The notes: generated by a model from the sequence alone, not told the origin. Positions 34,464-62,879 are shown, numbered from the stretch's first letter. The stretch: 64,000 nt of DNA from Pseudogymnoascus verrucosus (GCA_001662655.1 KV460229.1), one strand, 5' to 3'. Numbers and translations are program-made.

Positions 34464-35442
34464 ATTGCTGTAGGGAATAAATTATATAGATAAGTATGTT
34501 TTGTAGTAAAGTTCATGAGAATGGGTGCTGTGGTATTTATAAAAATAACTGAGAGAGTGGGAGTAGTTGGGGGGGGGGGAGCTTGCACTCGCGTGGTTGT
34601 CGATGTGGGGTTACAAAATGATGTGGGGGTAAGTTCGCGGTTTGAGCACACCCGTCGACTCGTCGACGAAGACTAGGAACACTCATCTTCGACGAACTCT
34701 AAAGCCCCAAAAAGCCACATAAAGCCTTGGGTTTAGGCATAAAGTTTCGTTTAGTTTGTGGGCTCAATGAGAAATCTAAAAGGAACGAAGGGTCTTTATT
34801 TACAGTAACGCGCGCATTTATCAACCGTCATTCTCAAGTCAAACTATCTTGGCCCCTATAACGAAACGAAAAGAAACACACTACCACCAGTTCATATTTA
34901 TGGTTTTAGTAAGATAGAGCAGCCGCATTATTGCGTAGGTTCTAGAGAAGGAATTGGTTTCAAACTCGATGTTGGAAGATGGGATCTTCCAGGCCGCGTT
35001 GTCGAAGAATCTCCAGTGTTACAGCTTCCGGAATACGGATGCTCCGAAGATGCCGACCGAGTCGGACGGAGAAGCTCCCTGCGACTTTATGACGACCATG
35101 ATAGGATGAACTGCGGGAGGTACCGGGTCTCGGTCAGTCTCGTGTCTCTTGCTTACAAGGTGCTAATACTAATATCTATGTGGCGCATCTTAGCGTCAAA
35201 TGCTACCCCATACCCAGAACCCCGGTACCCCGCAGTTAATTCTTTTGGAGAGATCTCCAACTTCATGTCGCCAACCTCGACGTCAACATCTGTCACCACT
35301 TCCAATCCTGCTTCAACCCTCACCTCTAGCCTAAATTTTGCAGTCTATATTCGATCGTTAGAATTAAGATTGAGGTTGTCATCGTCGCAACGAAAGCGCG
35401 CGACGTCCCCATCCCACGAATATTCTCAAAAAGGGAGCAGCA

Positions 35443-38400
35443 ATGGCATCCATCGTGGTAGAAATGCCAACCGATACTGCCCCTGTACAAGGACAATCGC
35501 CCGACGAAGGCGCTATACACCCACAATTACAAAAGCCGGTCCGGCGTTACTCATGCTCTGTCTGTCAGAAGGCTTTCAAGAGGAGCGAGCACTGCTCTCG
35601 ACATGAGAGAGGCCGTAAGCAAAGACCAACCACCTTCCACTCGAGACGCTGACAAGTTCTCTTTCTCAGATACACGTGAGAAGCCTTTTACATGCAGACA
35701 TTGCGGTCGGCGATATGCTAGAAAGTAAGTGAGCGAGAGCATACGACGTCGTTTGCGCGTAGATTAGTTTGTTCATATAAGACGCTAACCGATCCTAGGG
35801 ACCTTGTCACTCGTCATGAACAGTCGTTCCATCCATTCGAAATTTCGCGACGGCAACAGTCGCCAGTTACGGAAACCACTCTATTAGCAAGTACTCAAAC
35901 GTCTAATGTGGAACCGATTGAGGAAACCACGGCTCCAGCACCTCAAGCGCAGTCTACTCTAGATCCCATTTTACAGCGATATGATGAGCAAATTGCAGAA
36001 TCTCAACGCGCGTCATGGACCGCCAAAGACAAAACAAACGACCCCAAATCAAACGAGCAGGCGTCAACATCTTCACATCACGCTGAGGCTCGTCGGGAAT
36101 CCGATTCCGCAGAGTTACCAATGGCCATAGATGGCCCATTGCCCACGCCTGTCGTATCGTCTGGACCAGGTATCAGTCAACCATTCGGAGACTCTTCAAT
36201 GCCCGGCATGAATGATGAATTCTTAGTAAATCTCCTCAATGATGCTACGGGACAATCTGGACAAACTCCAAATTCCGATACTGTTCTCACTCAAACATCC
36301 GAGGCAAGTCAAAGTGGGCCTAGTGGCCAAGTATGGGATCCGAGTCGGACAAATTGGCAGGATCCAGACACGTTCAGTAGGCATGAGTTTGCCGCAGACC
36401 CAAATGCTACAAGCAATGAACCACCTGCCATGGCCCATCAAATAGAGAACTACTTTCAAGATGTGGATATTTTTTCTATGTTACCAAACGGCGGGACAAA
36501 CATAGAAGCTGATTTTGCAATACCGAGCTATTTGTTCAACTCGGGCTATAGCCCGCCAATTGATAACGAGTCCCCACAGCTCCTTTGGGATGCAAATGAG
36601 AGGAATCTCTCGGTCGCTATGCACGGCACATCACTAATAGCCATCAGAGCAGTTGCAGAGCCGTTCGACCCAGTACCGTTTGCCGGGTCCTCAGCACGAC
36701 TGCCTACCGTTGTCAACGAAACGCCAAAGCAAATATCTCTGCGTCCCGTGGACAGCGACATCCATTCTCTGATCTTGAAAGATATCGAGAAGAGATTGTC
36801 ACATGAGCAACTGAAGGACTTCAACATGCCTAGCGCCCAGAGTCTCCAGCGATTTTTGGTTAGCTATTTGACATGCTTCCACAGACACTATCCGATACTG
36901 CATTTCCCGTCCTTAGATCTTCGGAATGCACCTACTCCCCTGATTCTCGCAATGTGTGCTATTGGTGCACTCTATCGACTTAGCCGAAAGACTGCAAAAG
37001 ATCTTTGGTTCTGGGCTAATAAGATGCTCGAATTGGTAATACTGTTCGCTTCGAAAAGTCTCACCTTGCCTCTTACTGACTCTCTACAAGGAACTTCAAA
37101 CGCCACCTTCAGATTTAATGTCACCTAGCACAATAGCCGCCGCCCAGTGTAAATTACTGCTTTCGCTATTTGCTGTCTTCAGTGGAGACGTGACGGAACA
37201 GGCACTTACGCAGTGGGGATATTGGACAACGGTTAGCTCGTCGTGCTGCAGATATGCTGTTGATGCTAATTTATTTCGAGGAATATCGACTGAGAAGAGC
37301 TATCTTGGCCCTTAAACGGCCAAATACCGAATCGCTTTCATGGGAGTCATGGTGTTTGAGAGAGACATCTAAACGGTTGGATATTTACACATTCTATTAT
37401 CCTGATTAATACTGACGTGTGCAAGGCTTCTATATGGGATCTTCATTATGAGCAGTTTAATGACTGTGGCCTACGACATGACTCCTAGCTTTTCTGTGAC
37501 GCAAGACATTGACTTGGAGATGCCCGACGAAGAAAGGCTTTGGGAAGCAACTAACGCTCAGCAATGGGAGGAGATAATTAAGTCACGAAATACTCCAACT
37601 CTCATAACTGTCCGGGACGCCATGACTCACCTTATATTCGCAAAAGAAGACTCCTCTTCCAGGACTGACGTTATGAGTTGGACGGCTTTCGCGACGACCG
37701 TCATAATGCATGCTGTCAATGTCCACATGTGGAACATCATGCAATTTACTCAGTCTTTCACTACATTCGCCATTGGCGAACAAAACAACAACAACCTCAG
37801 AGCGTGTCTCGTCACCCAGGTTGAATCGGCTTTGGCAAGATGTTATACCTTACTTACGGCTGGCCGCTCTGAACGAGAACACACATCGGACGACTTGGAA
37901 GGTCCACTAATATTCAACTGTCTGGCTCTGCTTCGAAGCGCTTATGTGAGGGTTGCTACTGGCGCTGGTAACTTCAACCGCATGATGTTGCTTTGGAGCG
38001 ACCCAGACCAAGTGACAAGTTCTATCCAATCGTATATTGACAGTCCCCAAGAACGGAATCCTTTCTTGACGACAGCTGTGCATAAGGCTTATGGAGGGCT
38101 CCTCATTCCAATTAAAGCTGGCCATCTCCTGGTGAGAAAAACGGCTGCTCTCAGTTGGAGCGTAGAGCATGCCATTGCGGCTTGGGATTGCGGTGAGCAT
38201 TACATGATTTTTTTTGTCTTGTGTGGCAATATCAGAGTTACTGACTTCGTATCATTAGCATTGTTCGTTCTAAAGTGGATCCACACTATGGAAATGCAAC
38301 AGCGAGAACTGCCACCAAACGACGAGGAAATGAGGAATCTTACCAACTTTGCTCAACTTTTAACCGAGGTTGACAGTGAATATAATGGGAAAGGTTCCCT

Positions 38401-38641
38401 CGCCGCGGAAGTTACTAGAGTTTGGGCATCCTTCCTTGACGATACCTGGGTCTGGGGCAGTAAGTCATCTTAACTACTCCGCATTACTTGGACCAATCCC
38501 CTGAATAATGCTGACCGTGCTTACGTTGAATTAGTTACTCCCCGAATGGGTTACGTATTAAGGCTCATGTCAGCCGCCTTTGCAGAAGAATGGAGGCTGA
38601 AATTCATTAATGGAAATGAGGATGGTCCCATTAGCCGATAA
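35443..38641 (+). CDS. C2H2 zinc-finger transcription factor with fungal TF middle-homology domain (Adr1/AmdA/Tda9-like architecture), multi-exon
   Basis: Finger 1 CSVCQKAFKRSEHCSRHERGH, linker TREKPF, finger 2 CRHCGRRYARKDLVTRHEQSFH. Downstream FHRHYPILH, LILAMCAIGALY, SWESWCLRETSKR and WSVEHAIA; stop at 38639-38641. Confidence 0.9.
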
Positions 38642-60916: not shown

Positions 60917-61298
60917 GATGGCACATGATTGTCATTGGGCGAAGGAAGATAATGATCGAATGCACTTTAGTGTTGTTATACTATTCTTACAATCTCCACT
61001 TCATCTCTACTCTGCCTGTAGATTACTTCTTTGCAATGTGATTCCCATGCAGGCAATTATCACGTGTAGTTTGAATAATTCAAAATTATTGACCTTACCT
61101 ATCTAAGGCTGATTGTAGCCGAGACCGTCAATTATAGTGCCTGTAATTTCGTGTTGTCGAACATTTAATGGTTTTAGAAATCGCGATTTACGCATAAGCT
61201 GAAAATAAACCACTCATAACAAACAAATTCACTTTTGTTATATCCTAGATCTACACCGTATCATTGACAGATTGAAGTTTCTACTATATATTATAGTT

Positions 61299-62368
61299 CT
61301 ATGGGATCATTATCTTTTGCCCTTCATCTACATCCTTACTCAACTGATCCCCCATCCAAACTGGTTGTGTCTCATGAAGCTTGTCCTCAAAGTCCACGAT
61401 TTGATGGCCAGCCACAAAGAATGATTTTCCATTAATATCAGGCCGCACCACAGGAAGAAGAAGGGCGTATGCTACGCCCCAGGGTTCATTTGCTGGGAGC
61501 GTGCCCCATTTATCGCGGACTGCTTGAGGGAGCATGCTGGTGACTGTACTGTTGTTAGTGTTCTATTCAGGAGCGCAACGTGCGATATTCGCCTGATAGT
61601 CAGACAGAACTTACTTGTCATCCATGGGGCTACCATATTCACAGTCACATTATTATTCTTGATCAGCTGTGTTCGAAGGGATCGCATAAAGCCTAGAATA
61701 CCAGCTTTAGAAGCACAGTATAGGTATAACGGTGGGGTGTCGATGAAGCTAGCTGCTGATCCTGTCATGACAATCTGGCAGCGTGTTTCTGGCCATTTTT
61801 TGAAGTAATGAACAGCACACTTGACGACGTAAATGGTTGCTGTTAAGTTGATATCGATAGTTTTGACGTTGGGAGGTAGGAGCTTTCCCGTTTCTGGATC
61901 AATTTCGTCCTCAAGAAAATTCTCGTTGGTGACGCCAGCATTTGAGAGGACAGCATTGATGATGCCGAAAGTCTTCCAAGTTTCTTGAAATAGCTCTAGA
62001 ACATCGTCCCATTTTGAGACGTCACATTTTCGGAAAAGTACACGTCTGGGAGTAGAAGATATTAGTGGTATTCAATCAGTGAGTGCAGCGACATTGTAAA
62101 TGTGCTTTGTATTGCGTAGACATACTCTCCGAGTTCCTCTGCCAATGCCTTTCCCTCTCCATCATTCCAATCGCCAATTGCAATATTTGCTCCATATCCT
62201 AGAGATTGTCAACATTATTAAATAACTCGCACTGCAGTAGTCTTATGGTTACTCACTATGTGCAACTTTGACGGTTTCACGTCCTATGCCAGTTGACGCC
62301 CCGGTAACAAGGATAGTTTTACCCTTTAAGGCCAACAATTCAACGTCTTTGAAGTCGTACGTAGTCAT
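61299..62368 (-). CDS. Short-chain dehydrogenase/reductase, multi-exon
   Basis: LKGKTILVTGASTGIG, CDVS, SNAG, TIDINL, MTGSAAS and catalytic YCASK. Confidence 0.9.
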
Positions 62369-62879
62369 GTTAATTGAATATGCGATTTGTCTGAGCTACG
62401 TATCACTAGAAAGGGTGGGATGGATTTGGCTGTAAACCTGGATATCATTTGAAGGTTATAGTCATATTTCTGTGCTTACTTGCTTATTCATAGAATCCTT
62501 CGCCCTCTAACTTGACCTTTCCGCCAAGTGTGGTGTGGGCGTATGTGGGGTGCGGGGTGCGGGGTATATTTCAGAACAGATATCCACAAACCAGGGAGAT
62601 CCCTCCAGAACTCCCCTCATTATATTGGGAAAATGACGTGGAATTATGTGAGTCGCAATGTTTGACGCTTGCGCTGTGGCGGATGCTTGGTTTTCATGAG
62701 TAATAAAAGCCTGGCTCACAGGATAGAAGATGAAATTAACGAAGTGACCGAACTTACTTTCTCTCCGAAATTTTTCAAGGATATATATTTAACCAGTCCT
62801 TCCACTCTGCGTTACTTGTCATACATACACAAGCTTGCACTTCTCAGATTCTGCATATTGTCGCATCTTTCCAGCCGCT

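Follow-up and report, generated by a model that had tools for sequence, protein, structure and literature searches.

The 64-kb window of Pseudogymnoascus verrucosus DNA considered here (the whole stretch analysed, G000:C24:248001-312000 of the host genome G000) carries, from about position 31900, a run of 20 genes that extends beyond the window end to a continued coordinate of about 69155 and whose families point to the catabolism of an aromatic compound. Within this cluster, at 35443..38641 on the plus strand, lies a gene for a transcription factor (TF) with two C2H2 zinc fingers and a Fungal_trans region, and the cluster promoters carry G-rich boxes with the core GYGGGG, in strict form ATGYGGGGT. 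The position of this motif, its rarity in the genome background and its recurrence in promoters of other fungi that cannot be aligned strongly support the view that it is a cis-regulatory element common to the cluster, one that is almost certainly functional, and the resident TF is probably the protein that binds and activates these promoters, in the manner of HxnR. Binding, activation, inducer gating, competition with CreA, pathway and substrate are all inferred here from sequence; the TF was the one gene fully spliced, and the limits of the other genes are approximate.

The TF gene has eight exons and an open frame of 924 amino acids. Its finger region is split by introns at 35615-35669 and 35725-35798, and once these are spliced out the recognition helices read RSEHCSR and RKDLVTR, just as a preliminary description of this DNA had given them. 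The two-finger domain resembles that of Adr1 (2adr, E 3e-13), one exon matches Fungal_trans at E 6e-5 (22.7 bits against a cut-off of 23), and all 24 homologues of the TF carry PF04082. The TF is 91% identical to a Pseudogymnoascus protein, and the 24 homologues belong to the Leotiomycetes, Dothideomycetes and Eurotiomycetes, with one Sordariomycete. Fingers could be recovered from part of this set, and their contact residues (-1, +2, +3, +6) are R-E-H-R in 13 of 13 first fingers and R-D-L-R in 13 of 14 second fingers, the last being R-D-V-R. Under the C2H2 code these residues predict GYG-GGG followed by a 3' T or G, in line with the motif. The broader site GYG-GRG, which had been predicted earlier, did not hold: GYGGAG, CYGGGG and CYGGAG show no clear enrichment in the cluster, which indicates that the site is GYGGGG rather than GYG-GRG or the full SYGGRG sequence recognized by CreA. 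Two related C2H2 genes elsewhere in the host genome (C3:284690, L043, and C4:870404, L041) have Lys for Arg at -1 of finger 1 (KTEHLLR), and each lies near a similar intradiol-dioxygenase-linked or oxygenase-like open reading frame (ORF).

At the left end of the cluster, a Say1-like alpha/beta esterase (31900..33069, plus strand) of uncertain membership has two looser boxes upstream and a divergent promoter in common with an ABC-transporter-like gene at about 26505-31100; further left, at 20128-23697, lies an NLR-like gene with NACHT/NPHP3_N and ankyrin repeats. The next gene (33300..34463, minus strand) belongs by Pfam to the Fe-ADH family and is labelled maleylacetate reductase-like (MAR), as in the preliminary description; its intron holds ATGTGGGGT at 33875..33883 (plus strand), the sole strict copy inside a gene. 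The divergent MAR/TF promoter (34464..35442) has ATGTGGGGT at 34603, ATGTGGGGG at 34621 and TGCGGGGT on the minus strand near 35227, boxes through which the TF could possibly regulate its own gene. Downstream of the TF, type B carboxylesterase 1 (38875..40643, minus strand) and a CMD/AhpD-family protein (41020..41448, plus strand) diverge from a promoter (40644..41019) that carries ATGTGGGGT at 40747 and two GYGGGGTAA boxes. An alpha/beta hydrolase (41746..42597, plus strand), for which a 3-oxoadipate enol-lactonase ranks third among solved relatives (E 4e-17), is preceded by ATGTGGGGT(AA) at 41604..41612 (minus strand), and type B carboxylesterase 2 (42967..44823, plus strand; GESAG motif, similar to the family of carboxylesterase 1, the scanned exon having no Pfam match) by the tandem pair ATGCGGGGT / GTGTGGGGT at 42804..42819 (minus strand). 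The gene for cytochrome P450a (45083..46827, minus strand) has ATGTGGGGT upstream at 47009..47017 (plus strand), and that for an NAD(P)-binding Rossmann protein (47293..48301, minus strand; weak Epimerase/NAD_binding_10 matches) has two GTGGGG boxes and no strict copy in its promoter (48302..48546).

In the right part of the window, metallo-beta-lactamase-fold (MBL) hydrolase 1 (48547..49647, minus strand; HxHxDH motif, no Pfam match in the scanned exon) and 3-hydroxyisobutyrate dehydrogenase-like protein 1 (HIBADH1; 50368..51422, plus strand) flank a divergent promoter (49648..50367) with strict copies at 49900, 49918 and 50151 and two looser boxes. An MFS transporter (51835..53499, minus strand) has ATGTGGGGT at 53699 and ATGCGGGGA in its promoter (53500..54171), and an FAD monooxygenase (54172..55654, minus strand, 3' end approximate), with PnpA (E 4e-30) and HspB (E 2e-27) as nearest solved relatives, has ATGCGGGGT(AA) at 55852 and a GTGGGGT box in its own (55655..56318). 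HIBADH2 (56319..57355, minus strand) is preceded by three GTGGGG boxes and no strict copy (57356..57866). MBL hydrolase 2 (57867..58904, minus strand), whose best solved match is a weak one to an N-acylhomoserine lactonase (E 2e-6), diverges from a non-canonical, MhdA-like member of the homogentisate dioxygenase (HGD) family (59192..60916, plus strand); the promoter between them (58905..59191) has tandem ATGTGGGGT at 58933 and 58942 on the minus strand (ACCCCACAT thus occurring twice), TGCGGGGT at 58961 and GTGGGGT near 59001. Finally, short-chain dehydrogenase 1 (SDR1; 61299..62368, minus strand, 3' end approximate) and cytochrome P450b (62880..64000, plus strand, start approximate, with distant solved relatives only), which runs off the window, diverge from a promoter (62369..62879) with three tandem boxes from 62543. 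In G000, P450b is followed by SDR2, with a 15th strict site between them at continued coordinate 64995, and then by a P450 reductase-like ORF. Transposase-like ORFs straight after the reductase (C24:317790-319860, L001; continued coordinates 69790-71860; GC 0.40) form the right edge.

Considered together, these boxes follow the promoters closely. The core GYGGGG occurs in all 15 promoter-bearing intervals (13 of which lie within the window), with 43 copies in 8.4 kb, 32 of them with a 3' T, 20 with a 5' AT and 14 with both, and the strict nonamer occurs in 14 copies spread over 11 of the 15; the earlier claim that every cluster promoter contains boxes thus stands for the core and fails for the strict form. 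None of the five convergent intervals (1.5 kb) holds GYGGGG, and the gene bodies (28 kb) contain 15 cores and the one strict copy in the MAR intron. From the non-coding DNA of control regions 8-10 promoter cores would be expected instead of 43, the chance of finding a core in all 15 intervals is at most 5e-7 against sampled background, and 150 Markov simulations of the cluster promoters gave at most 4 strict copies compared with the 14 real ones. The strings quoted in the preliminary description at 58933-58968, 62543, 42804 and, in the MAR intron, 33875 are all present. Its impression that boxes are sparser in the left half is borne out for the nonamer, of which all 14 copies in the window lie within 33875-62551 and none in 1-33874, and is mistaken for the loose GYGGGG, with 39 copies in the left half and 46 in the right.

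The enrichment over genome background that the preliminary description had proposed to look for is pronounced. The host genome (30.17 Mb) contains 713 copies of ATGYGGGGT, a rate at which 28.7 kb would hold 0.68 (Poisson P 3e-14, an overstated value, as the motif was picked on the same region and the background is clumped), and the 38-kb cluster span has 15 copies compared with 0.90 expected, or 16.6-fold. In eight other catabolic regions of this genome that served as controls (the quinate cluster, canonical hmgA and six intradiol-dioxygenase loci), 151 kb contain 4 strict copies, which is 1.1-fold, the genome average. Dense spots do occur elsewhere: the densest of those fetched, which were picked among the 100 sites listed first in a set of 713 and in a set of 304, hold 7 copies in 32 kb, 6 in 40 kb and, with three copies in an imperfect repeat, 5 in 6 kb; the cluster has about twice as many strict copies as the best of them. 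The richest of them, G000:C2:306508-338919 (L072-L075; 7 strict copies in 32 kb, 6 of them C-type, that is, ATGCGGGGT), is surrounded by transporter- and glycosidase-like ORFs that form no coherent cluster, and no CreA/Adr1-type finger gene was detected around it. Two intradiol-dioxygenase loci have a few promoter boxes, with one (C11:139800-145100, L062, L063) and two (C1:40934-41935, L060) strict copies; these may be CreA sites or may belong to the regulon as outliers. A further strict site lies upstream of a gene at C17:376586-377110 (L038) that adjoins a copper-amine-oxidase-like ORF and in whose product a Zn2Cys6-like stretch comes after a pair of C2H2 fingers. Tandem pairing of boxes was tried as a cluster-specific feature and rejected: there are 125 matches genome-wide, and of the 100 that were listed 3 fall in cluster promoters.

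Conservation in related clusters provides a second line of evidence. A scan of metagenomes with the middle region of the TF gave 23 loci, 13 of which hold other cluster genes in the fetched DNA, or 11 once L007 and L011, duplicates of L006 and L012, were dropped. In these 11 loci the TF exons are at most 75% identical, gene order differs in each, and blastn found no match between their promoters and the window promoters. They nonetheless contain 15 strict copies in 89 kb, 12 of which precede a recognised cluster gene by at most 800 bp, with one in a gene, one upstream of a further gene and one at a locus edge, so that the conservation which had been suggested as a check is indeed seen across rearranged loci. 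The spans of clusters and controls were set after the contents of the loci had been seen, and the promoter mask was rule-based and built on homology; a non-coding mask based on ORFs kept 7 of the 15 sites, chance ORFs being present in the metagenome loci. Order-2 and order-3 Markov simulations of the related promoters gave at most 4 strict copies compared with 12. When k-mers were ranked in 30 related promoter segments (19 kb, the window left out), GTGGGG and TGGGGT came out on top among 6-mers, GGGGTAA, TGTGGGG and GTGGGGT among 7-mers and TGGGGTAA and TGTGGGGT among 8-mers, giving a consensus close to ATGTGGGGTAA, also written (A)TGTGGGGTA(A), and k-mer counting found no second motif of comparable rank in these promoters. 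In two named genomes, too, the TF is linked to the catabolic gene set, with neighbouring locus tags in Rasamsonia and tags that differ by seven in Drepanopeziza. Ten TF loci without cluster genes, taken with non-cluster flanks, hold 2 strict copies in 94 kb (P 8e-4 compared with the related clusters), a control rate that is lowered by two AT-rich near-duplicates among them.

Several related loci deserve mention in their own right. Both strict copies of the TF-only controls lie in L015 (7217-7276), where a TF relative without cluster genes has two ATGTGGGGT about 800 bp upstream, which suggests retained autoregulation or a dispersed regulon. Close TF relatives at L010 and L013 are solitary genes: the DNA around them is AT-rich (GC 0.37-0.40), has no further long ORF and is nearly free of G-boxes. 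In L024 a strict site at 11310 precedes a DHDPS-like ORF (11727-12770) by about 400 bp, an ORF not found in the window cluster, and a phenol-monooxygenase-like ORF occupies 4547-6376, the labels in this locus having been given by eye from translation. In L012, ORFs at 19-4245 that resemble, again by eye, an amidohydrolase-type decarboxylase, an aldehyde dehydrogenase and RidA abut the related cluster, a set reminiscent of the 3-hydroxyanthranilate pathway.

The two variants of the motif, with T or C at the Y, are used unevenly, and a paralogous cluster of about 14 genes in the same genome (G000:C18, ~264-296 kb; 264300-296000, L049, L050, L045, L046) permits a comparison. Its genes encode an alpha/beta hydrolase, SDRs, two P450s, a monooxygenase, a dioxygenase 83-88% identical to that of the window cluster, an MFS transporter, an MBL-fold hydrolase to which window MBL hydrolase 1 is 29% identical, a CMD-family protein and a HIBADH, and its own C2H2 factor has 22% identity to the window TF in the middle region and the helices RSEHLKR and RKDILSR. 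Strict copies are 12 T to 3 C in the window cluster and likewise 12 T to 3 C in the related clusters. Genome-wide, the C-type ATGCGGGGT occurs 409 times compared with 130 for its reversed control, and the T-type ATGTGGGGT 304 times compared with 243 (1.25-fold), so that the share of T in the cluster (12 of 15) is unlike that of the motif across the genome (P 0.004). The C18 promoters also carry boxes, with ATGYGGGG at 2 T to 9 C compared with 30 T to 17 C (Fisher P 0.008); for TGYGGGG, the window cluster alone differs from C18 at P 0.04. Decay of CpG as the source of the T variant was rejected, CpG observed/expected being 0.85-0.90 in six sets and equal in T- and C-type clusters. These results would argue against CreA alone more than against paralogues with the same helices, and cross-regulation between the C18 and window clusters is possible.

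A number of points weigh against reading these boxes as sites of the resident TF. The variant tests are post hoc and the C18 contrast comes from one paralogous cluster; moreover, 12 of 15 T is not far above the neutral share of about 0.65 given by the reversed controls and shows a lack of C preference more than a preference for T. All related clusters were found through the TF, which places clusters without it outside the sample, and while all six related loci longer than 7 kb have a strict copy, none of the five shorter than 4.4 kb does, and 9 of the 30 related promoter segments lack even GYGGGG. TGYGGGGT is mildly raised in the control catabolic regions (1.7 compared with 0.9 per 10 kb). Of 24 sequencing runs, none from RNA was listed, which bears on expression in neither direction. 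Among four runs matching 49600-50900, X9, from one relative about 96% identical, is the one that spans the stretch, the other three giving short pieces; across the 720-bp promoter 49648-50367 its 39 listed substitutions all lie outside the 43 motif bases, where 2.3 would be expected (P 0.09, only suggestive), and a 3-bp deletion in this promoter spares the box. In addition, reporter experiments show CreA-dependent repression through repeats of both GTGGGG and GCGGGG, the latter maybe the stronger (PMC11395683), a result that also makes plausible the competition with CreA proposed in the preliminary description from the overlap with SYGGRG. The fingers themselves are not distinctive, in that host genes at C5:782252 (RSEHRSR/RRDLLLR), C10:94203 (RLEHLKR/RRDLLLR) and C31:53758 (RLEHVQR/RRDLLVR, the second helix joined across an intron by eye) have all the canonical contacts of the TF and two more, on C17 and C18, depart from them at a single position, with Ile at +3 in finger 2, among the ten listed zinc-finger loci inspected.

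With three other genes sharing its contact residues, the helix match alone does not single out the TF; the earlier argument for co-regulation of the cluster by this factor is upheld as to the shared cis-element and loses the code match as its reason. T-type sites would suit an unlinked factor equally well, be it the AmdX/Adr1-like C10 gene or the C5 or C31 gene, with the resident TF acting elsewhere or only as a partner. We regard this as rather unlikely, since the 1.25-fold genome-wide excess of ATGTGGGGT makes no broad regulon evident, the linkage of the TF with these enzymes has survived rearrangement across many fungi, and a shared factor would poorly explain two clusters of one genome with different variants. 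The resident TF is favored instead because the motif travels with the TF-linked cluster genes and is T-type here, whereas both the genome-wide excess and the C18 cluster, with its other TF, are C-type. The same sequence evidence for binding by the TF would fit a repressor released by inducer just as well, the sign of regulation being unreadable from sequence; yet the HxnR precedent is a required activator (PMC5746545) and no separate activator gene was seen among the cluster genes, and we consider a repressor very unlikely.

The boxes might otherwise belong to CreA alone, as a dense carbon-catabolite-repression array on a costly cluster whose activation would run through some other, unseen element. 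Every box fits SYGGRG, the CreA gene is present (C34:162517; finger 1 contacts R-E-H-R like the TF, finger 2 RSDELTR with Glu at +3), unrelated C-type hot spots occur, and the reporter results apply to both core variants (PMC11395683). An array of this kind would be expected to show equal enrichment elsewhere and a preference for C, and neither was found: the eight control catabolic regions, taken by assumption as CreA targets in this fungus, have no excess of the nonamer, CYGGGG and SYGGAG are not clearly enriched, the related promoters yield no second motif of comparable rank, and CreA motifs from chromatin immunoprecipitation center on CGGG (PMC8844935) whereas these clusters are 80% T. Regulation by CreA alone is thus improbable, if somewhat less so than repression by the TF. 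As to neutral G-tracts or compositional bias, G-runs are common in the intergenic DNA of the host and motif counts are clumped, but the Markov simulations, the absence from convergent intervals and the recurrence in unalignable promoters of other fungi leave this explanation a negligible probability.

In the mechanism we favor, with the resident TF as activator, the G-boxes would be predicted binding sites of the cluster's own C2H2 and Fungal_trans factor, finger 2 (R-1, D2, L3, R6) reading GYG and finger 1 (R-1, E2, H3, R6) reading GGG and the next T, with a preferred full site close to ATGTGGGGTA(A). An inducer acting on its middle region would free the TF from an inactive state, after which it would activate all cluster promoters and its own; on glucose, CreA may compete for these cores. 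If this holds, the window TF would take the T-type ATGTGGGGTA at least as well as ATGCGGGGTA, and CreA and the C18 TF would favor C.

The genes of the cluster offer some guidance on the pathway. The window dioxygenase is 47% identical to the canonical HmgA of the host and 83% to an Aspergillus niger protein that groups with proteins of A. fumigatus, A. flavus and Penicillium rubens in a quick tree, whose outgroup branch is very long and whose base is unresolved; the link to the MhdA clade (that of A. niger NRRL3_10111) is by species composition only, with no accession match. Read on homologues, the family keeps the metal-ligand positions and replaces a canonical His by Glu. PnpA and HspB exchange a ring substituent for a hydroxyl. 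The combination of an MhdA-like dioxygenase, MAR, esterases, a PnpA/HspB-type monooxygenase, P450s and a reductase suggests a methoxyhydroquinone-type intermediate, and a route whose last stages are a substituted hydroquinone and 3-oxoadipate seems, on balance, a reasonable expectation. In such a route the MFS transporter would take up a plant aromatic compound, which the two P450s with their own reductase, the MBL-fold and alpha/beta hydrolases and the dehydrogenases would oxidise and hydrolyse; the monooxygenase would release the substituted hydroquinone, and MhdA-type ring opening by dioxygenase, maleylacetate reductase and esterase would lead to 3-oxoadipate.

The closest described chemistry is the methoxyhydroquinone pathway of A. 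niger, where MhdA, annotated as an HGD and 50.8% identical to HmgA, adjoins the type B carboxylesterase OmeA (PMC8336404) and the MhdA product is thought to be reduced by maleylacetate reductase (PMC8336404, PMC13094099). The window likewise has an HGD-family dioxygenase, a type B carboxylesterase and a MAR-like gene. It differs in that the neighbors described in A. niger are mhdA, omeA and an MFS gene only, fed by the salicylate-hydroxylase-like VhyA, whereas the set of some 20 genes here, with two P450s and their reductase, MBL-fold hydrolases and a PnpA/HspB-type monooxygenase among them, suggests an upstream substrate of greater complexity. Pinoresinol or another lignan would be in keeping with the P450s, lactonase and dehydrogenases, given that bacteria form methoxyhydroquinone when they degrade pinoresinol oxidatively, though this is a tentative guess: in Pseudomonas SG-MS2 catabolism proceeds through furan-ring opening to methoxyhydroquinone, with similar chemistry cited for Fusarium solani (PMC12607616), and the kinds of enzyme in the window, compared by description only, would suit such an opening, whereas the bacterial entry enzyme is a flavocytochrome in place of P450s. 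Clusters for tyrosine and gentisate (PMC3914699) and for gallate (bioRxiv 2023.06.06.543907), as far as their accounts describe them, differ from the window cluster in gene content, and PMC2657799 covers the canonical pathway. Searches on the gene combination, Pc21g22500, FGSG_02345-02349 and lignans, in a literature from which subscription papers were mostly absent, returned no description of the cluster, the factor or the motif; the Fusarium graminearum homologue is flanked by Erg24 and a tRNA ligase and does not belong to a cluster of this kind.

Among regulators, the window TF is nearest in design to HxnR, which has two N-terminal C2H2 fingers and PF04082 and resides in the A. nidulans nicotinate cluster (PMC5746545, PMC8478523), whose hxn genes it has been shown genetically to control (PMC5746545). 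Its site, GHGGGG, was predicted rather than found by experiment and occurs in the cluster promoters including its own (PMC8478523, PMC5746545), and its authors call it an unusual pathway-specific C2H2 factor, such regulators being described as rare in fungi (PMC5746545, PMC8478523). The window TF shares the N-terminal finger pair with PF04082, residence in and linkage to one catabolic gene set, and a predicted G-box in the cluster promoters and its own, but the gene families differ, with no xanthine-dehydrogenase-type hydroxylase or 2-oxoglutarate dioxygenase; with no hxnS/T/Y/P/Z-type genes among the families found, identity with the hxn regulon was rejected. CreA and Mig1 share the finger 1 contacts and, formally, every window box; the difference is that only GYGGGG with 5' AT and 3' TA(A) is enriched here, T-type in contrast to the genome-wide C-type. 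The finger pair also resembles the AmdA/AmdX, Adr1, Tda9 and Rsf2 class in its similarity to Adr1. Sites of AmdA/AmdX-class factors overlap CreA sites at amdS, and those factors are not known to be cluster-resident; as the Adr1/AmdX-like gene of the host lies elsewhere, on C10, the window TF is a different gene. No binding-motif paper for the Tda9/Rsf2/Ypr022c class surfaced in the literature searched, and those motifs were not used.

In summary, ATGYGGGGT is a conserved cis-element, as judged from sequence comparison, of an undescribed aromatic-catabolic cluster, which would represent another HxnR-type design, one whose site is read from evolution across unrelated fungi where that of HxnR was only predicted. 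It provides a candidate regulator and element for methoxyhydroquinone-type pathway genes, to which the regulation passages of a 2025 review, covering TanR/TanX, SdrA, WarA/B and FarA/B/D, assign no dedicated regulator, none being named for mhdA or omeA, while FarB affects growth on vanillic acid (PMC12388069). The motif also marks cluster membership, having flagged the extra gene in L024, and the presence of two paralogous clusters in one strain makes testable how near-CreA factors with the same contacts keep separate targets. A bolder and rather doubtful extension is that this is a widespread, undescribed cluster for full catabolism of lignans or guaiacyl dimers (through P450 ether oxidation, lactone hydrolysis, ipso release of methoxyhydroquinone and MhdA ring cleavage) under a ligand-gated C2H2 factor, with the two paralogous clusters tuned to the GTG and GCG forms of the CreA box. 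If true, this would be a natural case of fungal zinc fingers with the same helices dividing one sequence space between them.

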